Source: Macrostomum lignano
Taxonomy: Eukaryota
Assembly: GCA_002269645.1 (NCBI GenBank)
Contig: NIVC01005105.1
Coordinates: 1 to 26,227, forward strand
Direction of reading: 5' to 3'
DNA length: 26,227 bases
Shown: one piece after another, positions 1,625-26,227 of the stretch
Numbering within the stretch: position 1 is the first letter of the stretch
How the letters are laid out: the number at the start of each line of letters is the position of its first letter
The notes under the pieces: model-generated
What the model was told of the DNA's origin: nothing
Databases searched by the model: none
Seen by the model: the letters and a program-made list of their open reading frames with translations, nothing else
Program-made: the position numbers and the translations under genes

Positions 1625-2054
1625 AGTAGAAGGCATGAGGGGGCTTTTGGGACAAAATTTTTCACGTCCTCCATAATCCCATTAAATCCATCCATATTAT
1701 CCCTGACAGAATCAGAAAAAAAGGGGGGTCGCACTCGCTCCGAAAACGTCCTCCATAATCCACCTAAATCCATCCATATTATCCCCGACAGAATCAGAAA
1801 AAAGGGGGGTCGCACTCGCTCACAAAACATCCTCCATAATCCTATTAAATCCATCCATATTATCCCTGACAGAATCAGAGCATTATCCCTGACAGAATCA
1901 GAGCATAACAGTAGGACACCTGTTATGCTCACTGACACAGACATAATCCACTAACATCCACCCATAGCATCTTCGAAACAATCTGAAAATAATCTGTATT
2001 CTTCTCCCCACATTCAATCCGCAACGTGCTACCACATCCCTAAAACTTTAAATC
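1625..2054 (+). repeat. Left terminal inverted repeat (~430 bp near-perfect; degenerate extension to ~2089)
   Basis: Reverse complement of 17570-17997; the differences I found are all in homopolymer runs. Confidence 0.96.
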
Positions 2055-2214
2055 CCCTAACCCAGGGTCCTTACCCATTGAAAAAAAATAAATAATTTTA
2101 TTATTCATTAGTAAGAATTATATATTTATTAACGGTTGCACAGCTGATAGGATATGTATTAACTATTACAAGAGTATCAAAAATGGTAGAAAAAACAGAC
2201 ACTATGTAGGATCT

Positions 2215-2491
2215 GCGTTAGAATTCTTCAACAACATACAGAGCCAGCCTAGCGTTCCTTTGAGCCAGCAGCTAGATTCTCTAACGCGTTAGAATTTTCT
2301 ATGTGAAAATTTGGTGTGCCCAAGCTTATCATGCGGGAAGCTTTTCACATAGAAAATTCTAACGGCGTTAGAATTTAAAACCCACCGACTGAGTTGCACA
2401 CAGTACTGAGAAAATTGCTACCCTCCTCTACTTAACCAATCGGCTGTCTCCAGTTGTTGAATCTTCTCTTTGAAATTCTAACGCGTTAGAA
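2215..2491. promoter_or_regulatory. Cluster of palindromic TCTAACGCGTTAGA motifs and a ~28-bp-arm inverted repeat just inside the left TIR
   Basis: Half site 2215-2225; palindromes at 2280-2293, 2354-2376 (one extra central G) and 2476-2491. Arms 2282-2309 and 2342-2370 are inverted copies. Regulatory function is inferred. Confidence 0.6.
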
Positions 2492-2554
2492 AAATTCTAA
2501 ATGAACTGAATTTAAAAATTACACAACTTTCCACGCAGGATCACTGGCCAAAAT

Positions 2555-3031
2555 TTATTCTAGAAACTTCATCTTAGAGTTTAGTTCCCTAATTGGCATT
2601 GACACCTGTCTCAAGCCTGGGTAGGTAACAGACAGTTTGTACAGACGAATGTACAAATAGCCAGTTGATTCCTGGATGTTTACATTTTTACACAAATGGG
2701 CGAACCGCACTTTAACATCTTGTCCAAAGTTCTCGGTGCGATAAGTTTTTAGCAGCCGCCCAACTTCGAGAATCCAATGTAGACCTCCAATTTGAGTCTT
2801 CTTGTATTTTGCTAGAGCCGCCTTCACCCTAGTGATGATGTTCTGCTCGCCAGATGGAAGCTGGTGATCAACAGCGTCCATCAGCTGATCAGCTAGTGTT
2901 ACGCGGGATGCGTACAACTTCTCCCTGAATATCTGCAGATCCGCCATCTTCTTCTGCAGAGCCGCCGCCTTCTTCTCTTCGCTACTCACATTTTGCGCTT
3001 CATTCGCTGCGGCGATATCATCAGGGGCCAT
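2555..3031 (-). CDS. Hypothetical element protein, possible helical DNA-binding protein; may extend to ATG 3197 if the T6 run near 3072-3077 carries an indel
   Basis: 158-aa ORF with GCCATGG start and protein-like composition. LEVGRLLK...F..LC..VNI..STGYLYIRLY loosely recalls DUF3102-type helical domains (unverified). Confidence 0.6.
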   Translation of the reverse strand: MAPDDIAAANEAQNVSSEEKKAAALQKKMADLQIFREKLYASRVTLADQLMDAVDHQLPSGEQNIITRVKAALAKYKKTQIGGLHWILEVGRLLKTYRTENFGQDVKVRFAHLCKNVNIQESTGYLYIRLYKLSVTYPGLRQVSMPIRELNSKMKFLE

Positions 3032-3749
3032 GGCGAAAAACTCGATTGGTAGGTCGCCAGTTTCTAGACCGAAAAAAGGTGGTTAGTTCCTCTCTTCTTC
3101 TTGCTTGTAGATGTGACGGAATATCCTGTAAAACTCTTTGTAGCATGGCACAAAGGCCTTGCTTATCTGTCAAATGAAGATTCCACTCGACTTCCATTTT
3201 CTAAATTTTCTTGTCTTCTAATCTTCTAGTTTGGCGGACAATTTCTTAGATCACTTTCAGCGTGCTTAAGTTCCTGCAGTCGTCGTTTCTCAGTCGCAGT
3301 TGATGGCATATGCGGGGAGAATCAACCCGAGTGTTTCTGCATTTGCTTAAATACAGCTATACAGCTAGAAAATTCCAGAAAATTCTTAGACTGTACAATC
3401 TTGGAGTCAAGCAGGGAAAAAATAATTGATATAGCTCAGTGAACGATAGAACATGAGGCGTGTGAATGTGAGGGTGAGCGATCGATTCCCTCCACCCGCT
3501 TGAAGTCCCCATACATTTCCTTGGTTGAATGGGTTTGTCAAAACGGAAAGGAAAGCACGCGTGGAACTTGTACATTCGCAAAATCGATTAGAGGGCTGCG
3601 CTCCCTCAGCAAATAGCAGTTACCCCACCCCCTTCTGCTTCTACTTTTCAAAATGCAGCTGTTGCGCTTGGTTAGGGCTGAGAATAACAGTTAACCCTTC
3701 CCGACTCAAGCGCCTCTCTCTACCCCGCCCCATATCTTCATACCGTAGA

Positions 3750-4160
3750 GACCAACTAGGCGGGCCACATTCCGAGGCCAAATCGGCGGGCCGAGGCCAA
3801 CTCGGCGGGCCAACTGGCCTCGCAATTTGGCCAATAATCAATATCAATCAAGGAGGGAATCTCAACATACACAGTCCATGCATGCTAATGGCGGCGAAGC
3901 GGTTGACTTTTTATTTTCTGCTCTTAGCTCTCTGGAGAATGAGAATCTCTCTTGTGCGCAACTCTTTAGGGAATAAAAAACTGTACTTACTCAAATCCAC
4001 ACTTGCTCATGCCCTTCCCGATTCAAGCGCCCCTTTCTACCCCCAGCTCTTTCAGCAGTCTTCCCAATTCATTGTTAGGAGCGCACAAAATAAACTCTGC
4101 TCCCGTGCGTTCGCCCTCTCTCCCCGTGCACTCGCCCTCTCTCCCCAAACACCCGCCCTC
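3750..4160 (+). promoter_or_regulatory. GC-rich putative promoter block upstream of integrase (GGCGGGCC x3, GAGGCCAA x2, then CGCCCTCTCTCCCC x2)
   Basis: Motifs are visible at 3759-3835 and ~4112-4146 within an otherwise AT-rich element; function inferred. Confidence 0.4.
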
Positions 4161-4549
4161 GGCGTACACCCCCAACCCCAGTTTTGTCTTACTAAAAATA
4201 ACAGCTTTAACTAGCTTCCGAGCGATCGACTCACGAAATCCGCTTGAAATCCCCATATTGTCGAGTCTCCTGAGCATTTCTTTGTCCCACGATTCTTCTC
4301 CTCAGGAAAATCTCTATACTTATGTCATGCCACATGCAGACAGAGTCTAGCTCGTTCACAGGCTCATGCCCAGGATTTGGATTATCGTTTGTATCTAACT
4401 GATTTCAAGTGGATTCAAAGGCCCGCAATATTTATAGCCGGGAATGTCCAGCCTTTGTTTGGATGAGGAAGCTTTTCTATCAGTCCATGTGAATCTATTT
4501 TACCACCAGAGCGTTGCATTATTTTATTTAAAATTTTCTTTTTAAATAA

Positions 4550-5586
4550 ATGACAGATCAGAAACTTAAAAAACTCTACTACAGCGACAAAGGATTCTTT
4601 GTAGGCAAAAATGCCGTTAGTAAACTCATGGAGCTGAGTAAGGAGCCAAAAGCTACAGTAGAAAAATGGCTCTCTAAGCAGGCTGTCTTTCAAGTCTATT
4701 TCCCACCAGTAAAATTTGAAAGGCCCCATTTCAGTATTTATAAACCTAATGAAGCGCACCAAGCAGATCTTTTGTTTCTCCCCAACGACTCAGGCTACAA
4801 GTATGCTCTTACAATTATTGACATTGCTTCCAGATATAAGGAAGCTCGCCCACTCAAGACGAAGAAGTCAGAGGTTGTTGCCAGCGCACTGCAAGATATT
4901 TATAAAAACTCTCCGCTCACATACCCCCAAATCTTTATGACCGACCCGGGTAAGGAATTCATGGGTGTAGTGAAATCCCTTATGGAAAAGAAAAACACAG
5001 AGATTCGCTATGGCAGAACAAACTTGCACAGAGACCAGGCTTTTGTGGAAAGATTCAATCTAACTCTAGCCAAGAGACTATTCACTAAGCAGACAGCGCA
5101 AGAACTCAAACTGAGTGCGGGCAGTACTATACCAAGTGGACAGAAAGACTCCCCACTGTTATAGAGCAACTGAACAATGAAGTCACACGCATGACTGGAT
5201 TGAAACCATCCCATGCAATTAAACAAGACACTGTCGAACTTAAGGCATCTCATAGAACAGACAACAACACGACAACCCCACACAACACACACAACACAAA
5301 ACACACCTCGAACTACCCTAAGCTTCCAGGAGTTGAATCACCATACATACTGACAAACTCTGAGTTTCTACGCTTTTTATATCTACCTGGAGAGCTAGAG
5401 AAAGACACCAAAAGAAGAGCTACAGATCCATACTTCAGCCTTGATGTGCATAAAATAGACAGACATTTTACCTCCGACTCCGGTGACTATTACTTTTTAT
5501 CTCAAGCCTTTAACCCTAAATCCCCCACGCGGTCATTCACTAGAGCTGAACTCCTAGTGATACCAGCTGACACAGAAATTAATTAA
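4550..5586 (+). CDS. Polinton retroviral-type DDE integrase (one frameshift near 5108-5110)
   Basis: HQADLL (D), MTDPGKEFMG (D) and VERFN (E). Adding one A at AAA 5108-5110 joins the ORF to ...YTKWTERLPTVIEQLNNEVTRMTGLKP and the Polinton-type C-terminus RFLYLPGELE..KRRATDPYFS. Confidence 0.93.
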
Positions 5587-5602
5587 AATATTAAAATAAA
5601 AA

Positions 5603-6045
5603 ATGACAAAGATTGAAACCAGAACCATCAATAAACTCAATAAAATCATTGAATCAAAGAAACCAGGTATTATATCAATTAAAGGTGCCAAAGTAAAAAT
5701 CGATCCCACGCAGCAAATAGTTCAGTGTAATGAGCAAAGACACAGCATCACAGATGAAAAGTCAGGAGGAATCCTACCATTAGCAGCTCTTATCCGATCA
5801 TTGCAGGCGCTGTAAGTGCCGCAGGTGGTGTAGCTGGAGGTGTAGCAACTGCTGTTAAAGCTGGAATGATAGAGCCCACCAGCTGAATTGCAAAAGATTG
5901 CAAGAGACAAAGGTATAACAATTAAGGCAGGAGAGGGCTGCCCCGATCGTGATGATTGTGAGAATGAAAATTCTGTAAGCAAGTCTGACATTGTCAAAGC
6001 ATCATGACACTGCACAATGCTGGGTTTACAATAATGCGCATGTGA
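5603..6045 (+). CDS. Small protease-processed virion protein with an adenovirus pX (pre-mu)-like C-terminal half (four single-base frameshifts)
   Basis: Reconstructed as ...KSGGILPLAALIPIIAGAVSAAGGVAGGVATAVKAGNDRAHQAELQKIARDKGITIKAGEGC...KAIMTLHNAGFTIMRM* by adding C at 5794-5795 and A at 5865-5866, 5881 and 6001. Confidence 0.7.
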
Positions 6046-6169
6046 TGAGGTTTAAAACCCCACTTTATCCAGCTTCATAAACCTAACGCTACTGATAGGA
6101 TGTAGAAACAGTTCAACTTTTCTATCAGGGTGGTCACCCTCAAATTTTTTTTATATTTTAGAGAAAAAA

Positions 6170-9100
6170 ATGCCAAAAGCTAATCCAGCAAAAGATTTAG
6201 TCAACAAATATTTTTCATTTAAAGGCGTCTCATTTCAAGACAAAAGTAATTTACTAAGAGAAGCATGTAAACAAAAGTTTAACACCGACCCTGGTCACCT
6301 GGGAAGCTATGAAAAACAGTTGGAAATCATCAATCAATTAGAATCCAACCAGTATGCGCCTATAAAAATCCTGCAAAGGAACACCAAGAGAGGAGTCGCA
6401 ACTTAGTTAACAAATACGAAACTCTCACTGGTGAAAAAGCAAAGTACCCACAAAATAAGCAGGAACAAGAGAAATTAGAGCAATTAATCCATTTAAAAGA
6501 GTCGGAGCTTGCCACTGAAGAGATTAATTTTGCACAGAGGAAGTTTACAGAACATTACATAGAGTACACAATCCCAATTAACGGCACCAACGGCACCACC
6601 GCAAACATCTACGACTATAAAGACAGCATCCAATCAGTTGTTGATCACACACTCAAAACACGCAAGACCTTTAAACTACAGATATCATTCAAGATTGCGT
6701 TTTATATGCCTGCAAAACCCACTGAGCATCTCGAGTATTACATGACAACAAAGGCAAAGCCATTCACCCCAACAGACACACTGGATCCTTTCCTTCAAGA
6801 TGTCACTAAGAAAATTGAAGCGTTTACATCCAGAGGTTCCGGATGGGTCGTGGGAGGGATTCAAAGAGCGACTGTCATGGTCATGAAATATGACCCACTT
6901 AAAGCCTCCTCTTATATAGAGCTCCCACATAAGCTAGCCGGCAAAAAAGCTTGCATAAATGTTAAAAATAAAGACAATTGCTGTGCTCTATGGGCAGTTC
7001 TTTCTGCACTTCTTTATGATAGTGTCCCTCACCACCCCGAAAGAACCTCAAATTATCAAAATTATTTCAACTACTATCTCATCGAATGCGAAAAGAAGGG
7101 AATCAGGTTTGACAAAGGAGGCTTGGCATCTCTCAGATCCCAAAGCTAGAAGAAGTGTTTAATAACAAAATTAGAATCACAGTCTTTGAGTGGAGTGAAA
7201 AACTGAAAAGTTCAACCGGTCAGATGTAGCAAAGACGTTTTAGATCCTGAGGGAAAAGGCGGACTGAAGTGGATCTTCTAGTGATTGGTAATTTACTAGA
7301 GGAGGCTCACTATGTTTGGATTAAAGATCTTTCAAGACTCATTCACAAGCAGTTGAATAATCATCACGAGGCTGTTGCCATCTGCCGCTTGTGCCTTAAG
7401 CATTACAGTGGACCTGAACGCTTTGAAAAGCTAACAGAGCATGAATTATCATGCGAGGATCACCCGACAAACTGCTCTCTTCCTTCAGCTGAAGAGAAGT
7501 ATCTCCGGTTTAAGAACTATCACAAGATGGAGAAGCTCCCATTTGTTGTATATGCTGATTTCGAATGCTCAATCGTGCCAGAAACTCAAAAACAAACTCA
7601 AACTCAAAAACATATCCCCAATTCAGTAGCATATGCCTTTATTAATACAAAAGGACTTGTTGAGTATAATTATTTCTTTGGAGAGCAGTGTGTGGAGCAG
7701 TTTATTGCCAGAATGTTAGAGTTGCAAAAAGTGATTAGCACCCTTCAACCTGTTCCAATAATGATGACTGAGGAGGATGAAAGCAATTTCCTATCAGCAA
7801 CTCATTGCCACATCTGCAGGAAACATTTAACTTGCACTAATATTAAAAACCCACCGTTAGGGACCACTGCCACTATACTGGGAAATTTAGAGGTGCAGCG
7901 CATAACACCTGTAATCTAAAGCTAAAATCGAACATTCATGATCTAACGATATTTTGTCACAACGCAAAGAACTATGACATGCATTTAATAGTTGAAAAAA
8001 TCGGCATGATTCCAGACATACACCTTGATTGCATCGCAGAGAACAAGGAGAAGTTTAAGTGTGTTGATATTAAACAGGATAATTCGGGTACAGGTAAAAT
8101 AAGACTGAAGGATTCATATCAATTTCTAGCTGCCAGTCTAGACGAACTAAGCAAGAATCTAAAAGATGAACAATGTACATATACAAAGATGTTTGCAAGT
8201 AAAATTAACAACACTGATGAATCATTTAAACTTTTAAGAAAGAAAGGCTTCTACCCCTATGAAAATATTACTGGGTATCACGTATTTGAAGAAGGTTTAC
8301 CACCACAGGAGAAGTTCTTTTCAAAGCTAACAGACTCTGGAATCTCTGACAAAGACTATGAGCACGCGAAGCATGTCTATAATTACTTTAATTGTCAAAA
8401 CTTCTTCCAGTATCACCTGCTTTACCTCTACACAGATGTGTTTCTGCTGGCCGATGTGTTTGAAACCTTCAGATACACCTGGTACACAGCATATGGCCTC
8501 GATCCAGCACATTATGTGTCTCTGCCTGCCACTAGCTGGGAATCTTTGCTTAAAATGAAATGGGATCAAGATCCAGATTGGTACATTGAACTTCTTACAG
8601 ACATTGACATGTACAATTTTGTCGAATCGTCAAAGCGAGGGGGAATCTCAATTTGCGTTAACAGGTATGCAAAAGCAAACAATCCCTACATTGAATCTTA
8701 CAATAAGGAGCAGCCCTCAAACTACATTACTTACTTGGACGCTAATAATCTCTACGGTGGGCGATGAGTCAAGATCTTCCAGTTAGAGATTTTCGATGGC
8801 TACCCTCATCAGAACTAAAGTGGGACTTTTCATTGGCTGCCATTTATGAGTTGATGTTTACATTCCACCAGAGCTTCACGACTATTTCTCTGACTTTCCA
8901 CCCTTCCCAGAGAACATCAAGTGCCCGAAAATAATCGAAACTCCCAATGATAATAATGGAACTTGGCACCTGTCAGGAACAGAAAAAGAACATACAGAGA
9001 AACTAACACAGAATCTAAACAACAAGACACGTTACAAAATCCATTACAAACTGCTTCAGTATTTTATCTCACTTGGTTGCAGGGTCACCAAAGTTCACAG

Positions 9101-10010
9101 GGCTCTTACATTTACAGAGGAAGCGTGGATGAAACCCTACATTGATAAGAACACCCAGTTTAGGACCAAAGCAACCAACGACTTTGACAAGAACCTCTTT
9201 AAGTTGGCCAACAACTCTGTCTATGGCAAGACTCTTGAGAATGAGCGGAAAAGAACAAACCTGAAACTTGTTACCTCATCAGAGCCTGCTGTTATTCAGG
9301 CAAATATGTCAAAGCCAACATTCAAAGAACTCCATATCTTTAATAGCTACTTAGGTGTGATCATATTTTACAAAACCAAGGTGACGCTGCGCAAGCCGAT
9401 CTATACAGGTGTCACTGTTCTCGACGAATCAAAACGTCTGATGTACCAGTTCTTCTATGGCATGAAGCAGCAGTACAAGGATAAAATGAAACTCTTGTAC
9501 ACTGACACAGACAGTTTTATTATGGACATTCAAACAGAAGACATTTATCAGGACATGCTGCAGCAAAAAGATTTGTTTGACTTGTCTGAGTATGATGAAT
9601 CTTGCAGGACACAGAATGGCGATCAAGTGTTTGACGCCACTAACAAGAAAGTGATTGGGAAAATGAAGGACGAGATTGCTGGTGACATAATCACTGAATT
9701 CATTGGGTTGAGAGCAAAGTCCTATTTTGTAAAATGTGAGTCGTCAGACCCAATTAAAAAATCAAAGGGAATTCCGAAACGTGTGGTTAGGAAGGAAATT
9801 AATGAAGCTGAATACAGAGACGCCTTGAATTGCAACAAAAAGACATCACATGAGTTCTCAAAGCTACAATCTAAAAACCATATTATTCACACAATTCAGC
9901 AAAAGAAGATTGGACTGTCAGGTGCAGATAACAAGAGATTCATTTTTGATGACAATATCAACAGTCTACCGTTCGGGCATTGGAGATTAGGTTTAGGAGG
10001 TTGGGTTTAG
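6170..10010 (+). CDS. polB: Protein-primed family B DNA polymerase (pPolB), ~1280 aa, fragmented by about eight frameshifts
   Basis: GSGW; YDPLKASSYIELP; INVKNKDNC; HYVWIKDLSRL; ExoI VYADFE; RDHCHYTGKFRGAAHNTCNL; ExoII HNAKNYDMH; KKGFYPYE; ExoIII YLYTDVFLLADVFE; motif A YLDANNLYG; motif B KLANNSVYGK; motif C YTDTDS. Confidence 0.96.
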
Positions 10011-10063
10011 GAGGTGGAGGTTGGGTTTAGGTTTAAGAGAAAGTTTAATAAACCTCATAAAAA

Positions 10064-10465
10064 ATGACAACAAATAACTTTCTTGAAGATTTGGCTAACG
10101 AACTGGAAATCCCAAACTTTAGAGGAATATTTATGAGGGACACTCTGCCTGATTTTCCTCTAAGAAAGGAATGCGGCATCATGAACTTTGACACCACCGA
10201 TAAGCCAGGATCTCATTGGGTTTGCTGGGTGATTGATCCCGATCGCAAGCACAAGTGTTATTACTTCGATAGCTATGGGACGGCAGTACCAGAAGAGCTA
10301 AGAAATTATATGAAGGGAAAAAATAATAAAAAAATTTATCGCTCAGACTTTATTCTCCAAGGTCTTAGCAGTGATATTTGCGGTGAGCTGTGCATGACTG
10401 TTTTGTATGCAATGACCAAAACACGAAAGACCTACAAGGAAATTATTCTTGGCTGTGTTTCATAG
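10064..10465 (+). CDS. Adenain-like (Ulp1/CE clan) cysteine maturation protease
   Basis: Catalytic residues in order: GSHW (His), YYFDSYG (Asp), LQ (oxyanion Gln), ICGELC (Cys); 133 aa, intact. Confidence 0.93.
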   Translation: MTTNNFLEDLANELEIPNFRGIFMRDTLPDFPLRKECGIMNFDTTDKPGSHWVCWVIDPDRKHKCYYFDSYGTAVPEELRNYMKGKNNKKIYRSDFILQGLSSDICGELCMTVLYAMTKTRKTYKEIILGCVS

Positions 10466-10494
10466 GGTTCATTGTGCATTTCTCGTCGTCCTTC

Positions 10495-18882: not shown

Positions 18883-20013
18883 ATGACTCAGACAGAGGGT
18901 TCGTCTCTGCCTCAGTTGCACACGAGCAGCTGCCTCAACCATTCGACGCTGTCGGTGAGCAACGACAGCTTTGTGCCAATCCGGCCCAGCCTCCAGGAGT
19001 TCTGGCTGGTCACCAGCTACTGCCTCAGCCTGCTGGTGGTGCTGACGAACTCGGCGGTGCTGGTGGTGGTGTCCCGCAGCCCCAGCCTCCACCGAGCCGC
19101 CTACGCCTTCATCTGCAACCTGGCCGCCTGCGACCTCATCTACGGTCTCTGCTACGCCTTCTTCGCCTCGGCCGCGCATTTCCGCCAGCTGGGCGGCAGC
19201 TTCACCGTCTGCCGCCTCGCCCTGGCCAGCTTCTACGCCTCCATCGGCTGTTCAACCGTCGGCATCACCCTCATCGCGAGCGAGCGCTTTGTTGCCATCC
19301 GCTACCCCATCGCTTACGGTCGGCTGGCCACCCGTTCGGCCGTGTCCGCCAGCATCGCCGTCGCCTTGGCGCTCGTCGTCGGCCCGGTGACAGCTGCCGT
19401 GTTCCTCTCGGCCAGGCAACCGCCGTATTACCCTCACCTGGTTGGCTGCGTCACCCAGCATCTGCTGCCCACCTGGGCTCTGGTGCTTGCCTCCGCGCAC
19501 ATTGCCCTGGCGCAGACCGTGGCCACCTGCTGCTACCTGTCCGTGTTCCGCATCGCCAGGCTGCAGCGGCTCAGCGCCAAGCGCCAGATGGGCCAGCGGG
19601 CGGGCCGCGTCGCTCGCAGCTGGCAGCTGACCGTCTCCATCGGGCTGCTCATCGTTCTGTTCTACTTCTTCTGGATTCCCACCTGGGCGCTGCAGCTCTA
19701 CCGACTGACCGTGCCGGATACCTCGGCCTCGCTGACCCTCGCCTACTTCAGCGCCTGCTTCTCCACGCTGAACAGCATAGTGAACATCTTCGTCTACTGG
19801 CTGCGCACCAGAGAGTTCCAGCTGGCCGTGAAGCGACTGCTGCTGGGTGGCGAGGCCCGGAGGCGCCGCTCCACTGCTCAGCGGCAGCCGCAGTTGGGCG
19901 GCTCCGCCAGGGCCAGCGTTGCTACAGTCGCCTCCATGATGGAGTCCTCCGCGGATGCCGCTGCTGCCGCTGCCGAATCAGTGAAGGGAAATTTTGTTGC
20001 TACTAAACTCTGA
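18883..20013 (+). CDS. Host intronless rhodopsin-like (class A) GPCR, ~376 aa; frame is open from an upstream ATG at 18607
   Basis: Seven hydrophobic segments; N-terminal NHS/NDS glycosylation sites; TM1 Asn; TM2 NLAACD; TM3 ERF; TM6 FWIP; TM7 NSIVNIFVY. Confidence 0.9.
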   Translation: MTQTEGSSLPQLHTSSCLNHSTLSVSNDSFVPIRPSLQEFWLVTSYCLSLLVVLTNSAVLVVVSRSPSLHRAAYAFICNLAACDLIYGLCYAFFASAAHFRQLGGSFTVCRLALASFYASIGCSTVGITLIASERFVAIRYPIAYGRLATRSAVSASIAVALALVVGPVTAAVFLSARQPPYYPHLVGCVTQHLLPTWALVLASAHIALAQTVATCCYLSVFRIARLQRLSAKRQMGQRAGRVARSWQLTVSIGLLIVLFYFFWIPTWALQLYRLTVPDTSASLTLAYFSACFSTLNSIVNIFVYWLRTREFQLAVKRLLLGGEARRRRSTAQRQPQLGGSARASVATVASMMESSADAAAAAAESVKGNFVATKL

Positions 20014-20422
20014 CAGATGCTCCGTAGTTTATGCAGAGGATGGCTGAAAGCCGCACAATCATGAAAATTTATTTGAAGAGATGAGCTCAGTGGTCCTTGC
20101 ATTCCCATAACTCGTTGTACTGTGCAAGTCCATTACAAAATCCAAATAGCCCCGACTAGCTACTTGCTAAAAGTACGCTCGTAGTACGAATAGCACCCGC
20201 AGTTCCTAAAACTGCCTGTCCGCCACTGTTAAACATGAACTGCAACTGCAGACCTGATTCGCCAGGTCGCTCTCAATGCATTTCCACACTAATTAAAATG
20301 CCCAGCGGGGGAAATTGCGCAAAACTTTCTTGATTTTGCTGCGATCGATGCGTTTTTGAGTTGTATTTCCTGACACGGAAGCCTCGGATTTTCTGGCAGG
20401 TTTAACACGGCCGCCATGTTGG

Positions 20423-20632
20423 TTACTGCAGCCTGACTAGTAGCTAACTGCAGCCTGACTAGTAGCTTACTGCAGCCTGACTAGTTGCTTACTGCAGCCT
20501 GACTAGTAGCTTACTGCAGCCTGACTAGTAGCTTACTGCAGCCTGACTAGTAGCTTACTGCAGCCTGACTAGTAGCTTACTGCAGCCAGACTAGTAGCTT
20601 ACTGCAGCCTGACTAGTAGCTTACTGCAGCCT
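20423..20632. repeat. 22-bp minisatellite (ACTGCAGCCTGACTAGTAGCTT), ~9.5 copies
   Basis: Read directly. Confidence 0.95.
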
Positions 20633-20801
20633 GCAGTACTAGGATCCAAGGAGCGTTTACAGTGTAGTCCTAGATGTGGCAGGGGAAATTTCAATCTAGG
20701 AGCAGTTCTAACATCTTTGTATCAATTGTGACACTGCGCTATCACAGCACGACAGCATGACTCGATAGGGGGTCCTGGTTTAATCTCAATTTTTAGCTCA
20801 C

Positions 20802-21105
20802 CACTCTTGCATAGCTTACAGATCCTCAGCACTCTTGCATAGCTTACAGATCCTCAGCACTCTTGCATAGTTTACAGATCCTCAGCACTCTTGCATAGTT
20901 TACAGATCCTCAGCACTCTTGCATAGCTTACAGATCCTCAGCACTCTTGCATAGCTTACAGATCCTCAGCACTCTTGCATAGCTTACAGATCCTCATCAC
21001 TCTTGCATAGCTTACAGATCCTCAGCACTCTTGCATAGCTCACAGATCCTCAGCACTCTTGCATAGCTCACAGACCCTCAGCACTCTTGCATAGCTCACA
21101 GACCC
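20802..21105. repeat. 28-bp minisatellite (CACTCTTGCATAGCTTACAGATCCTCAG), ~11 copies
   Basis: Period 28 (20830, 20858). Confidence 0.95.
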
Positions 21106-21476
21106 AACACACTGATCAACTGGCATTTAGATATAAAAGTAGCATAATGAACTTATCTAACAAGCATCTATTCTGCTGACACATTCTAGAAGCGCTAGCT
21201 ATAGGAGAGCGCCTTCGATTTCCCCCTGGTCTCGCCTCCACCCTGTGCACCGGTCTGAAAACTGCGGCTCCTCTGCCCCCCCGCGCACAGCTCAGATAAG
21301 CTCAGCAGAGCCCGCAGCACTTCCTGCCAGCTCAGGCGCAGGCCCACTGGGTTCGCACGCAGCCCCAGGTGATAAGCTGCGCAAGGCACCCTTTTTCTGC
21401 CCGCAGCTTAGCAGTCCAGCGGCAGAGCCAGGCAGAGCTTCAGATCCGAAAGCGAGCAAGGCGCGCCTCAGCAACC

Positions 21477-23072
21477 ATGACTGACCCCTTTTTGTTGGAC
21501 CAGAGGGAGGTGGAGTTGACCCTGCACCGGCTGGAGGAGGCCGTCTCGGTGTGGAGGACTATGCAGAAGGAGAGGCGGACCGACTTCAGCGACTCGCTTG
21601 AGTACGAGCTGCAGGGGTCGAGAGTGAGTCCTGACTGGGTCAAAGTGGGTTGAGGGAGGGTAATAGGGATTGGGGCGAGAGTGAATCATGGGGATTGGGG
21701 CGAGAGTGAATCATGGGATTGGGGCGAGAGTGAGTCATGGGGATTGGGGCGAGAGTGAATCATGGGGATTGGGGCGAGAGTGAATCATGGGATTGGGGCG
21801 AGAGTGAATCATGGGATTGGGGCGAGAGTGAGTTATGGGAATTGGGGCGAGAGTGAGTTATGGGAATTGGGACGAGAGTGAGTCATGGGGATTGGGGCGA
21901 GAGTGACGAGTCATGGGGATTGTGTTGAGGGTGGGTCATTGGAACTGGGTGGAGGGTGGGTCATTGGGATTGGGTTAAGGGTGGGTCATTGGAACTGGGT
22001 GGAGGGTGGATCATTGGGATTGGGTTAAGGGTGGGTCATTGGAACTGGGTGGAGGGTGGGTCATTGGAACTGGGTGGAGGGTGGGTCATTGGGATTGGGT
22101 TAAGGGTGGGTCATTGGAACTGGGTGGAGGGTGGGTCATTGGGATTGGGTTAAGGGTGGGTCATTGGAACTGGGTGGAGGGTGGGTCATTGGGATTGGGT
22201 TAAGGGTGGGTCATTGGAACTGGGTGGAGGGTGGATCATTGGGATTGGGTTAAGGGTGGGTCATTGGAACTGGGTGGAGGGTGGGTCATTGGGATTGGGT
22301 GGAGGGTGGGTCATTGGAACTGGGTGGAGGGTGGGTCATTGGAACTGGGTGGAGGGTGGGTCATTGGGATTGGGTGGAGGGTGGGTCATAGGGATTGGGG
22401 GGGGGGGCAGGTGCTCAAAATCAAACGGAATTCCTGTTCACCCCAGGCAGCATCAGGAACGGGATCCGGGACGTGAAGTGGAGCCTGGAGGACCTGGAGG
22501 AGACGCTGAAGCTGATGTCGCAGAACAACGGCCGCTTCGTGACCTCCGAGGACCTTGCCGCTCGGCGCAAATTCCTGGAGGAGTCTCGAAAGACTCTCGC
22601 CGATGTGGAGTTCGAGGTCAGCAGCCCCTCGCTGGACGCGGTGATCAGCGGGAAGCTGCAGCAGCAGCAGGAGGTGGCAGAGGCACCCGCGGACATCAGC
22701 TCAGCTGAGCCCGAGCAGGTGTCGCTGCTCAGGGCCGACTCCGAAGAGCAGGTGGTGTTCAGCAAAACCGAGTTTGCTTCCAGACTGCAGCCGAGTCAGC
22801 AGCGAAAGCCGGTGGACACCATGGTGTCTGTGAACCTGGACACCGTCAGGGACCTCGTGGAGCCGCCAAGAGGCCACCGGGGCTTCGGGGCCGCGGCTCG
22901 TTGGCTGTCCCGGTACCGCTGCTGGCTGCTCCTCCTGCTGCTGGTGGCCTTCTTCCTCTTGCTGGTGCTGATGAAGGCGCTGTCCAGGCGGGCCAGTGTG
23001 GATGGCTTGGCCAGCACCGAGACGCCAGCGACCACCACCGAGTGCCCGATCGACAGCTTTGACTGCCTGTAG
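21477..23072 (+). CDS. Host syntaxin-6/10 N-terminal (Habc)-domain protein with a transmembrane helix; exons 21477-21623 and 22447-23072
   Basis: MTDPFLLDQREV and IRDVKWSLEDLEETL...DLAARRKFLEESR match the Syntaxin-6_N pattern (DPF; WDLEDL; RKAFI). Donor GTGAGT at 21624, acceptor CCCCAG at 22446. Phases fit if GGGG 21614-21617 is G5 (ELQGVES|SIRN). Confidence 0.8.
21666..21922 (+). repeat. 25-26-bp G-rich intronic minisatellite (GGGATTGGGGCGAGAGTGAATCATG), ~10 copies
   Basis: Read directly. Confidence 0.93.
21927..22407 (+). repeat. 25-bp G-rich intronic minisatellite with two unit types (GAGGGTGGGTCATTGGAACTGGGTG / AAGGGTGGGTCATTGGGATTGGGTT), ~19 copies, ending in a poly-G run
   Basis: Read directly. 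Confidence 0.93.
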
Positions 23073-23118
23073 CTGCCTGCCGGCACCGCTGCGCCTGTCG
23101 CTCTGTAGCCTGGTGGCA

Positions 23119-23781
23119 TCTGGTGTGACAGAGCGTGTTGTCTGGAGTGACAGAACTGATGGTGTCGGAGTGAAAGAGTTGGTTGTGTCTGGAGTGACAG
23201 AGCTGATGGTGTCGGAGTGACAGAGTTGGTTGTGTCTGGAGTGACAAAGCTTATGGTGTCGGAGTGACAGAGTTGGTTGTGTCTGGAGTGACAGAGCTGG
23301 TGGTGTCTGGAGTGACAGAGCGTGTTGTCTGGAGTGACAGAACTGATGGTGTCGGAGTGAAAGAGTTGGTTGTGTCTGGAGTGACAGAGCTGATGGTGTC
23401 GGAGTGACAGAGTTGGTTGTGTCTGGAGTGACAAAGCTTATGGTGTCGGAGTGACAGAGTTGGTTGTGTCTGGAGTGACAGAGCTGGTGGTGTCTGGAGT
23501 GACAGAGCTGGTGGTGTCTGGAGTGACAGAGTTGGTTGTGTCTGGAGTGACAGAGTTGGTTGTGTCTGGAGTGACAGAGCTGGTGGTGTCGGAGTGACGG
23601 AGTTGGTGGTGTCGGAGTGACAGAGCTGGTGGTGTCGGAGTGACGGAGTTGGTGGTGTCGGAGTGACGGAGTTGGTGGTGTCGGAGTGACAGAGCTGATG
23701 GTGTCTGAAGTGACAGAGCTGATGGTGTCTGGAGTGACAGAGCTGATGGTGTCTGGAGTGACAGAGCTGGTGGTGTCTGGA
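23119..23781. repeat. 23-24-bp minisatellite (GTCTGGAGTGACAGAGYTGGTKGT) with a 187-bp higher-order duplication
   Basis: The diagnostic variant GACAGAGCGTGTTG recurs at 23127 and 23314, followed by the same order of variants. Confidence 0.92.
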
Positions 23782-24199
23782 ATGTTGCATTGGCTGCCGT
23801 TAGGAGTGAAAGATTCGAGGACATCTTAGTTGATGGACTCAAACTTTTACTCATGAGCTACAAGTTACAATTTACTCTGAAAGCGTGATCTGAGTCGGCA
23901 TAATTTCATGCACCTGTGATTTGTAAAGCTTTGCATTTTAACCCCCTGCCTATTGCCAACGCTACTCGTAGTTCAAAGTAGTTCCGAACTCAACAAGCCC
24001 TCCCAATAAAATTTTGCACCTGTCAGCACGTGTCACCTTTGTCTGGGTCTGACTCACTTCCTTCAAAACTAAACTTCAGCGTCATTTTTAGTTCAAAATC
24101 AAAATAAAACTACTATGAGTAGTAGGCATGTAGTGTGATAAAAAAATGCTAGTATTGTCGAATTCTTAGGTTGCGATTTACTTTTTCTGGCGCCAGAGT

Positions 24200-24880
24200 T
24201 GGCGCAAACCGAGTAGTCAATCTGGCGCAAACCGAGTAGTCAATCTGGCGCCAACCGAGTAGTCAATCTGGCGCCAACCGAGTAGTCAATCTGGCGCCAA
24301 CCGAGTAGTCAATCTGGCGCCAACCGAGTAGTCAATCTGGCGCAAACCGAGTAGTCAACCTGGCGCCAACCGAGTAGTCAATCTGGCGCAAACCGAGTAG
24401 TCAACCTGGCGCCAACCGAGTAGTCAACCTAGCGCCAATCGAGTAGTCAATATGGCGCCAATCGAGTAGTCAATATGGCGCCAATCGAGTAGTCAATATG
24501 GCGCCAATCGAGTAGTCAATATGGCGCCAATCGAGTAGTCAATATGGCGCCAATCGAGTAGTCAATATGGCGCCAATCGAGTAGTCAATATGGCGCCAAT
24601 CGAGTAGTCAATATGGCGCCAACCGAGTAGTCAACCTGGCGCCAGTCTAGTAGTAAATCTGGCGCCAACCGAGTAGTCAATATGGCGCCAACCGAGTAGT
24701 CAATATGGCGCCAACCGAGTAGTAAATCTGGCGCCAACCGAGTAGTAAATCTGGCGCCAATCGAGTAGTCAATCTGGCGCCAGTCGAGTAGTCAATCTGG
24801 CGCCAGTCGAGTAGTCAATCTGGCGCCAGTCGAGTAGTCAATCTGGCGCCAGTCGAGTAGTCAATCTGACGCCAATCGAG
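24200..24880. repeat. 23-bp minisatellite (CTGGCGCCAACCGAGTAGTCAAT), ~30 copies in blocks of variants
   Basis: Read directly. Confidence 0.95.
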
Positions 24881-25522
24881 TTAGTGTAGTGAACGCTGAC
24901 CGGCTAACCTGAGTCAGCGCTATCAGTGCTTAATTAAAGTTTGCAAGCAATCTACTTTACAAGCAGAGGCCTGCGACCCTCAGCTGTGCCTGGAAACGCT
25001 GGAAGGAATGCGACTGGCATCGAGTCCTATGAATACTGATCAGCATTGGTAAATTAACTCACGGCTATAAATAGTACCGAGCAGGTGCAGGCAAATTAAG
25101 ATAGCATATTTTTGTAAAGAGCAGCCCAATCAAACTCCATAATTTAAGCTCGCAGGCAATGATAAGTTGAGTCAACATGAGCACGGCCGGTCCCTGAGAG
25201 GTGAGCAGATTAGAATTCATTTTAGCTACTGTTGAGGCTCTTAACTGAGAAATGCATTCCACTGCTCAGCTCTGCTAAAGGCTATGCGCGACTAAAAAAT
25301 AGTCTCAGTTGAGGCAAATTATGCTTTTAATGAAACAGAATTTTTAGTTGGACTGCAGCAGCAGAGTTGACGCTGCCTCATGACAGCTGGATGCGACAGA
25401 TGACTTATTGAGTTGCGAGAAGCGTTGTGAGAGACGCGCCAGCTGCCATGCAGGGAGCAACTATTGCTGTCAGATGGTCAGAGCACTGCTCACCTGCTTG
25501 TCTGCCTAGCAGCTCACGAGTG

Positions 25523-26003
25523 CACATCTCACATCTCACATCTCACAGCTCACAGCTCACATCTCACAGCTCACATCTCACGGCTGACATCCACAGCTCA
25601 CATCTCACAGCTGACATCCCACATCTCACATCTCACAGCTGAAATCTCACAGCTCACATCTCACAGCTCACATCTCACAGCTCACATCTCACAGCTCACA
25701 TCTCACAGCTCACATCTCACAGCTCACATCTCACAGCTCACATCTCACAGCTCACATCTCACAGCTCACATCTCACAGCTCACATCTCACAGCTCACCTC
25801 ACAGCTCACATCTCACAGCTCACATCTCACAGCTCACATCTCACAGCTCACATCTCACAGCTCACATAACACAGCTGACATCTCACAGCTCACATCTCAC
25901 AGCTCACATCTCACAGCTCACATCTCACAGCTCACATCTCACAGCTCACATCTCACAGCTCACATCTCACAGCTCACAGCTGACATCTCACAGCTGACAT
26001 CTC
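25523..26003. repeat. 14-bp repeat built from alternating 7-mers CACATCT/CACAGCT
   Basis: Read directly. Confidence 0.95.
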
Positions 26004-26227
26004 ATAGCCCAAAGTTTACAAGCTGGCTGCCAGCTGCCTACAGGGATTATTGATCACATGAAAGGCAGCATTCGTGATTTCGCACTGTTGATCAGCCCCC
26101 GGCAGCCCAGTTGATTGCGGAGTTCGGGCGCCCCGGACACGCCGGAAAGTGAGTTGACGGCGGAAGACATCAGAAAATGCAGTTTATGCAGCAGATCCGC
26201 TCGCATCGTGTGTCTTCTAGCTGTGCA

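Follow-up and report, generated by a model that had tools for sequence, protein, structure and literature searches.

A stand-alone gene in a Polinton of Macrostomum lignano encodes a hydrophobic segment related to the C-terminal piece of adenovirus protein X

Introduction

Adenovirus pre-mu (protein X, pX) is cut at two sites, which yields an N-terminal piece, the 19-residue basic mu peptide and a last piece comprising residues 51-79 (PMC7998265). The C-terminal region is kept in all adenovirus genera, and ichtadenovirus pre-mu is reduced to that region; the adenoviral protease cuts [MIL]xGG/x and [MIL]xGx/G, the slash marking the cut (PMC12517501). Cleavage by the related mavirus protease occurs after GG or within GX/G (PMC6048507).

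Likeness to pX has been reported outside the adenoviruses as well. The adintovirus (Polinton/Maverick) proteins PLA2X and GasderminX carry pX-like domains, the latter fused to a gasdermin C-terminal-like region, and a map figure of the same source also labels a 'ColicinX' (Starrett et al. 2021, PMC8502044). With HHpred, pX/mu-like proteins were found in four PLVs that possess an adenovirus-type protease (PMC11296320). The adomavirus protein LO6 contains a 37-residue hydrophobic pX-like segment (HHpred 95%) and is seen in virions as smaller fragments, suggesting cleavage (bioRxiv 10.1101/341131).

Here, we describe a pX-like gene in Macrostomum lignano contig NIVC01005105.1 (GCA_002269645.1). 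The whole stretch analysed, 26,227 nt of the forward strand, is referred to as the window. An earlier note, made from the window sequence, had drawn attention to the gene, and its proposals are taken up where the pertinent results are given.

Results

The host element

The segment between 1625 and 17997 is best explained as a young Polinton (adintovirus) of 16.4 kb. Terminal inverted repeats (TIRs), AGT-type ends and a 6-bp target duplication are all present. In the TIR alignment (466 columns) there are 7 substitutions and 3 single-base gaps, and the ends begin with AGTAG. The Polinton context is directly supported by Pfam matches over the cut-off for all four of rve integrase, protein-primed DNA polymerase B (pPolB), A32 ATPase and adenain-like protease. 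The main features are:

1625..2093, + strand: left TIR, beginning with AGTAG; target duplication ATGACT at 1619-1624
4550..5586, + strand: rve integrase, in pieces, directly upstream of the pX-like gene (PF00665, E 1.1e-8)
5603..6045, + strand: pX-like gene of about 147 codons, interrupted by four breaks in assembly GCA_002269645.1
6170..10010, + strand: protein-primed DNA polymerase B, in several pieces, directly downstream of the pX-like gene (PF03175, E 3.6e-9 on 7979-8764; the pieces beyond were assigned from position and motifs)
10064..10465, + strand: adenain-like (C5-type) cysteine protease (PF00770, E 1.6e-4, 21.9 bits at a cut-off of 21.3; E 5e-20 to the protease of metagenome locus L063)
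12034..12834, - strand: A32-type packaging ATPase (PF04665, E 3.5e-6)
13194..13580, - strand: 128-aa ORF, candidate second protease substrate with K-R-G-S-G and R-S-G-N-G before an amphipathic-looking stretch
14782..16067, + strand: probable major capsid protein, in pieces (size, position and a weak likeness, tblastn E 0.027, to the double-jelly-roll protein of L063)
16090..16953, + strand: probable minor capsid (penton) protein (position and tblastn E 2e-4 to a 271-aa protein of L063)
17532..17997, - strand: right TIR; target duplication ATGACT at 17998-18003

The capsid pieces (14782-16953) gave no Pfam match, and the 128-aa ORF matched neither Pfam nor PHROGs. Position and pattern suggest that the latter might be cupiennin/pVI-like; it is placed like the small genes beside the capsid genes in loci L063 and L086.

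Several further observations concern the remainder of the window. The TIRs contain 81-bp direct repeats in three copies, 68-100% alike (1635-1906 and 17718-17987), and a 158-aa ORF near the left TIR (2555-3031, - strand) has no family match above chance. A 166-aa ORF (10495-10995, - strand) exhibits two hydrophobic stretches, weak Pfam 2-TM matches and a match to a PHROG of unknown function (E 2.6e-4); it may be the SLATT-type gene that is mapped in adintoviruses according to a label in PMC8502044. The 255-aa coiled-coil ORF at 11250-12017 (- strand), fibre-like by pattern, carries an 84-bp internal duplication (11486-11653). Between the ATPase gene and the 128-aa ORF, a 21-bp tandem repeat of about 15 units (12831-13209) can itself be read on the minus strand as an ORF of 7-residue repeats. 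To the right of the element, an unbroken intronless rhodopsin-type receptor ORF (18607-20013, + strand) points to an animal host, and many minisatellite arrays with 14-54-bp units occupy 20374-26100.

A gene hidden by frame breaks

An ATG at 5603 opens frame 1, which leads into E-K-S-G-G-I-L-P-L with the GG at 5765-5770. The Gly/Ala-rich hydrophobic stretch (5797-5859) lies in another frame than this start, the remainder is distributed over further frame pieces and the stop codon is found at 6043-6045. A continuous frame is restored only by mending breaks at about 5795, 5862, 5884 and 6000. The restored protein is composed of the following parts:

5603..5758, + strand: mildly basic N-terminal domain, not mu-like (composition; low-confidence prediction of a helix and a beta-hairpin in the relative P0003)
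5759..5770, + strand: K-S-G-G, putative protease site with Lys at P4, presumably cut after the second Gly
5771..5859, + strand: hydrophobic Gly/Ala-rich helix, homologous to the adenovirus pX C-terminal piece (PF05829), interrupted by the first break
5865..6045, + strand: C-terminal tail with a charged helix, a linker and a short conserved end common to P0003 and P0004; contains the other breaks

The stretch is present, whole or in part, in 20 of 24 listed public runs stemming from 9 studies. Among the gaps listed, contigs of all four runs examined differ from the window by single-base lengths at all four breaks. Again among the gaps listed, the difference is present in the entire depth at each break in runs X6 and X14 (the latter, at a guess, RNA) and in a minority of the depth in X1 and X3, e.g. 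62 of 357 at the first break. An 864-nt contig from X6 that covers 5179-6038 shows 4 gaps and 4 substituted letters relative to the window, and a second spanning contig shows 3 gaps and no substitution in 191 nt. Length differences of the same type relative to contigs occur in the integrase and polymerase genes. These contig figures do not identify the content of the single insertion at 1625-17997.

Gaps being about as frequent as substitutions suggests consensus error in a high-copy repeat, and the same parity bears on the reading that the gene family is real and the copy in the window is a decayed pseudogene with four true lesions. Decay would agree with the divergence between the TIRs, with the position of the breaks outside long homopolymers (runs of 1-2), with the unbroken state of the adjoining 468-codon host gene and, among the gaps listed, with the mixed depth in X1 and X3. 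However, parity of gaps and substitutions is unlike neutral decay; the pattern resembles long-read consensus error in a repeat, it recurs in integrase and polymerase, and the target duplication is perfect. We consider a pseudogene unlikely and regard assembly errors in a multi-copy repeat, rather than the state of the gene family, as the more likely origin of the four breaks.

The run contigs and the intact relatives described below thus bear out the earlier proposal of a hidden gene that reads through KSGG after four single-base repairs. The statement that it is invisible in the ORF track applies to the rest of the gene, the first 70 codons being listed as ORF 5603-5815. Frame errors in assemblies cause short virion genes of high-copy elements to drop out of ORF lists.

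Intact relatives and a wider family

A search with the first 64 residues against 1.84 billion representatives returned six matches, three of which (P0001, P0002 and P0005) were dropped as artefacts, being long repeat proteins. The true relatives P0003, P0004 and P0006 comprise 124-146 aa (139, 146 and 124, respectively), share 65-73% identity and are each a singleton from a short ENA contig. P0003 and P0004 align with 5609-6042 across the window's frames including the short conserved end (tblastn E 3e-26 for either), and P0006 aligns up to 5865 (E 2e-22). These matches across frames up to 6042 directly support the gene and lead us to conclude that a stand-alone protein of about 147 aa is encoded.

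Scanning metagenome contigs for the motif gave 64 loci, of which we retained 51 that were distinct and had 30 or more residues upstream. L108 was left out as a chance motif match in a 517-aa protein resembling membrane proteins. In the longer loci, which are Polintons, the pX-like ORF is a gene of its own encoding about 150-300 aa; a double-jelly-roll capsid protein and an rve integrase were found in 4/4 loci scanned for both. Polintons thus commonly carry a stand-alone pX-like gene. In the ESM Atlas, P0003 and L086 adjoin clusters of 61-352 members (scores 0.89-0.96); in two of these clusters Adeno_PX makes up about 20%, and the few members with a label belong mostly to Preplasmiviricota.

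The gene's neighbours differ among loci, and its position is therefore mobile. In the window (4550-6045), it is flanked by integrase and polymerase genes of the same strand and is distant from the capsid genes; in L063, L086 and L091 it adjoins protease or ATPase, and in L103, L104 and L112 a capsid gene. L083 and L090 share an identical 146-aa pX-like ORF, surrounded by ankyrin-like host genes or others; of capsid and zinc-ribbon genes only fragments lie nearby, and both loci are decayed Polinton insertions in another genome.

Other searches were less productive. When longer proteins were searched by words of the first 64 residues, 18 candidates emerged and none scored; locus searches with alignment A1 (199 viral and 559 metagenome pattern matches) and with a capsid piece (11 matches) led to no confirmed locus, viral contigs contained no match to the Polinton-type DNA motif, and none of the three relatives matched PHROGs.

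Homology to the C-terminal segment of adenovirus pX

The earlier note had compared the hydrophobic helix with the C-terminus of human adenovirus pX. The C-terminus it gave was correct, locus L006 encoding that 80-aa protein, and the likeness of the helix holds. Adeno_PX (PF05829) is the top Pfam match for 3/3 relatives (E 5.2e-3, 6.4e-4 and 2.5e-4), with scores of 17.1-21.3 bits that all lie below the Pfam gathering cut-off of 25 bits. Of 24,736 families, the broken 34-aa frame-3 piece, which is devoid of the GG-I-L-P part, matches Adeno_PX alone (15.9 bits, E 0.012); scanning 22 further window proteins gave no match to this family. Ten of 12 distant family members match as well, one of them above the cut-off (28.5 bits), and two do not match; matches at E<=0.01 exist for 25 of 38 aligned members, the best reaching 4.5e-9. 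When the family profile was run against PDB sequences, the adenoviral pX chain 9lr9_E ranked first (E 0.021).

For a direct comparison of profiles, a motif from 9lr9_E led to 53 adenoviral loci, labelled as such from motif and contig sizes rather than names; 48 were parsed by an ORF pattern and 44 were distinct. The three relatives aligned with this set at 93.8% in hhalign (pairwise E 1.7e-7, 28 columns, 50% identity); a further figure in the same analysis was 96.2%. With X placed at the breaks, the window gene obtained 12.4 bits on the adenoviral C-terminal profile, a score reached by 0/1000 shuffles. Adenoviral and Polinton sequences are alike in the 28 residues after the GG, which are uncharged in both groups and have a mean hydropathy of 1.72 (adenoviral 1.66). 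The GG is invariant in the alignments, in family alignment A2 by selection.

The match is short, of low complexity, below the curated cut-off and weak without the motif. The middle piece alone is matched by 41/1000 shuffles on the adenoviral profile, and removal of the searched motif leaves the downstream residues at 13.6% probability; the likeness accordingly rests on about a dozen low-complexity positions. Moreover, GG-[FIL]-L-P patterns were used to gather the family as well as the adenoviral set, and this inflates profile-profile scores between them. All this might speak for convergence, i.e. for a di-glycine and a Leu/Ile/Ala/Gly helix that resemble pX by composition only. Against this stand the shuffles of the relatives' 40-residue core, which attain the score in 1, 1 and 0 of 1000 cases, the chance-level performance of three other hydrophobic window proteins (421/1000, 171/1000 and 80/200) and the result for the frame-3 piece. 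In addition, protease, polymerase and capsid types are common to both virus groups, and three papers independently arrived at the same pX link. Convergence is largely refuted, and we deem it very improbable. The homology of the helix segment is short but credible and is limited to the GG and about 28 hydrophobic residues.

A basic residue at P4 of the putative cleavage site

The note had also equated the GG cleavage site with that of adenovirus. This applies to the GG itself; the P4 residue deviates from the adenoviral [MIL]xGG. P4 lies outside both search patterns and is M, L or I in 44/44 adenoviral pX proteins (L 25, M 17, I 2). In the window it is Lys, the three relatives have R, K and K, and among the 64 motif loci there are 58 with K, 3 with R, one each with H and F (the latter a chance match) and one that is cut off. 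In the literature search, which did not extend to most subscription papers, no statement on Lys at P4 was found. Cleavage at the GG stays likely, by another or a looser rule, given the behaviour of the mavirus protease.

In the window, other motifs with a basic P4 are confined to two in the 128-aa ORF and two in polymerase pieces. The small proteins of L063 and L086 also carry [MIL]xGxG motifs, which rules out basic P4 as a rule for all GxG motifs in Polintons and implies that it may be specific to the pX-like site. The contrast between Polintons (58/64 Lys) and adenoviruses (44/44 M/L/I) is a testable addition to what has been described.

The N-terminal domain does not resemble mu

A further proposal, a Lys-rich DNA-condensing N-terminus, did not hold. 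Residues 1-56 contain 9 Lys, 2 Arg and 6 acidic residues, amounting to +0.09 per residue, as compared with a median of 31% Arg and +0.35 per residue (lowest +0.17) in adenoviral pX. Of 2512 overlapping segments of this length taken from the element's other ORFs, 6.7% reach its number of Lys and 11.9% its net charge. Likeness to the adenoviral N-termini was not detected (803/1000 shuffles score as well), and the protein lacks a second, upstream protease site from which a mu-like peptide could be excised.

In the wider family, the N-terminus is predicted to fold into a beta-alpha-beta domain with an internal repeat (pLDDT about 90; 89% and E 2.3e-6 for the repeat), e.g. over the N-terminal 76 residues in the model for L054 (410-943). 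Foldseek found nothing at E<=0.001 for this model in PDB or BFVD, the best VIA Z score being 3.0, which does not prove a new fold. Such a domain is not described in the literature within reach of the search, most subscription papers lying outside it. The shorter N-terminus of the window protein may possibly correspond to one repeat; comparison with the family domain yielded no clear homology (30/1000 shuffles, less than 1% in hhalign), though L068 looks intermediate. An AlphaFold model of P0003 built from three sequences was discarded (mean pLDDT 42).

These data bear on whether the gene is a full pre-mu equivalent, with an N-terminal core peptide that the protease would set free and that would condense DNA. 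The N-terminus is net basic in the window protein and the three relatives (+3 to +5), the family median is 15% Lys, and chromatin condensation has been suggested for the mu-like proteins of PLVs (PMC11296320). Nevertheless, the shortage of Arg, the low charge, the dissimilar sequence and the single site are at odds with such a peptide, and the family domain is predicted to be folded rather than a short Arg tract. A full pre-mu equivalent is in our opinion quite unlikely.

Discussion

The gene probably encodes an internal virion precursor from which the element's protease frees a hydrophobic helix that serves in assembly and later in uncoating or membrane contact. We infer this virion location, the cleavage and the role of the freed helix from three points: only the C-terminal region of pre-mu is shared, the helix is uncharged and hydrophobic, and LO6 fragments occur in adomavirus virions. 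The precursor of about 147 aa would be packed inside the capsid with the genome, where its mildly basic N-terminal domain, not a condenser of the mu type, may hold it on the DNA. The C5-type cysteine protease of the element (10064..10465), presumably the enzyme acting at the GG site, would cut after K-x-G-G and create a new N-terminus at which the 28-residue uncharged Gly/Ala-rich helix begins, the piece conserved with adenovirus pX. The helix would most likely act first in assembly, as a hydrophobic handle linking core and shell, and may then loosen the particle or touch membranes during entry.

The last step overlaps with a reading in which the freed helix is mainly membrane-lytic and mediates endosome escape together with a phospholipase or a second small protein, in a role like that of pVI. 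The two are not mutually exclusive, and we rate a mainly lytic function as doubtful. PMC8502044 groups pX-bearing adintovirus proteins with membrane-active ones and reports an HHpred likeness between melittin and pX, a 19-residue hydropathy of about 2.0 is sufficient for entering a bilayer, and L063 encodes a separate PLA2 gene. Yet the post-GG helix is hydrophobic rather than amphipathic, its low moment (0.22-0.45) weakens the case for lysis, and the 28-mer has no basic residues. Neither a PLA2 nor a gasdermin domain was detected in the window protein or 38 family members, and the 23 window proteins scanned gave no PLA2 match elsewhere.

Returning to the internal precursor, we tentatively propose that protein X of Polintons and adenoviruses began as a hydrophobic helix released by the protease, and not as mu. 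Polintons would have combined it with an unclassified folded beta-alpha-beta domain and a K-x-G-G cut, hence with an S4 pocket for basic residues, and adenoviruses would have switched to a hydrophobic pocket and added the Arg-rich mu. If true, this would provide Polinton proteases with a first concrete substrate and a prediction of their specificity. The gene supports the view that Polintons form particles matured as in adenoviruses, a point already in print, and gives a Polinton from an invertebrate-like host a further virion component of intact type.

The notion of a component shared by Polintons and adenoviruses is upheld by the homology of the C-terminal segment and by the C5-type protease of the element. 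The implied novelty is not, as the link is in print in PMC8502044 (adintovirus PLA2X/GasderminX), PMC11296320 (mu-core-like proteins of PLVs) and bioRxiv 341131. A term search did not encounter "protein X" in the available text of PMC8097293, PMC11161782, PMC10748475 and bioRxiv 2026.10.13.758929.

Compared by description with adintovirus PLA2X and GasderminX, the gene resembles them in that its pX-like domain occurs in a Polinton that also encodes rve integrase, pPolB, A32 ATPase and adenain, and differs in being short (124-147 aa), stand-alone and situated between integrase and polymerase. A PLA2 domain was absent from the window pieces, as also from the relatives, with a library that does find PLA2 in the separate gene of L063. 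Gasdermin likewise gave no match in Pfam, PDB sequence or fold searches of the family, GasderminX itself having been defined by HHpred (PMC8502044). In L063 (5983-6519) and L086 (7678-8235), a DUF5679 zinc-ribbon-like N-terminus is joined to a parvovirus-type PLA2 apart from the pX-like gene; fusion of PLA2 and pX is therefore not universal. The PLVs of PMC11296320, again compared by description and not by sequence, are without an rve integrase, unlike the Polinton in the window. Adomavirus LO6 belongs to another virus family and has [MIL]xGxG or L[LR]GG sites as well as a pVI-like part.

The closest counterpart is adenovirus pX/pre-mu (PF05829, 9lr9_E). Common to both are the GG, [FI]-L-P and an uncharged Ala/Gly/Ile helix of similar length and hydropathy, which make up the hydrophobic C-terminal piece of the adenoviral protein. 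The Polinton protein differs in having Lys instead of M/L/I at P4, in lacking an Arg-rich mu and in two extra residues between L-P and the second Pro. Its helix is internal and followed by a tail of 60-120 residues, for which (5865..6045 in the window) adenoviral pX, ending 29-49 residues after the GG, has no counterpart. The gene product probably acts like the C-terminal piece of adenovirus pX and stands outside the adenoviral pX family by cut-off, site consensus and mu peptide.
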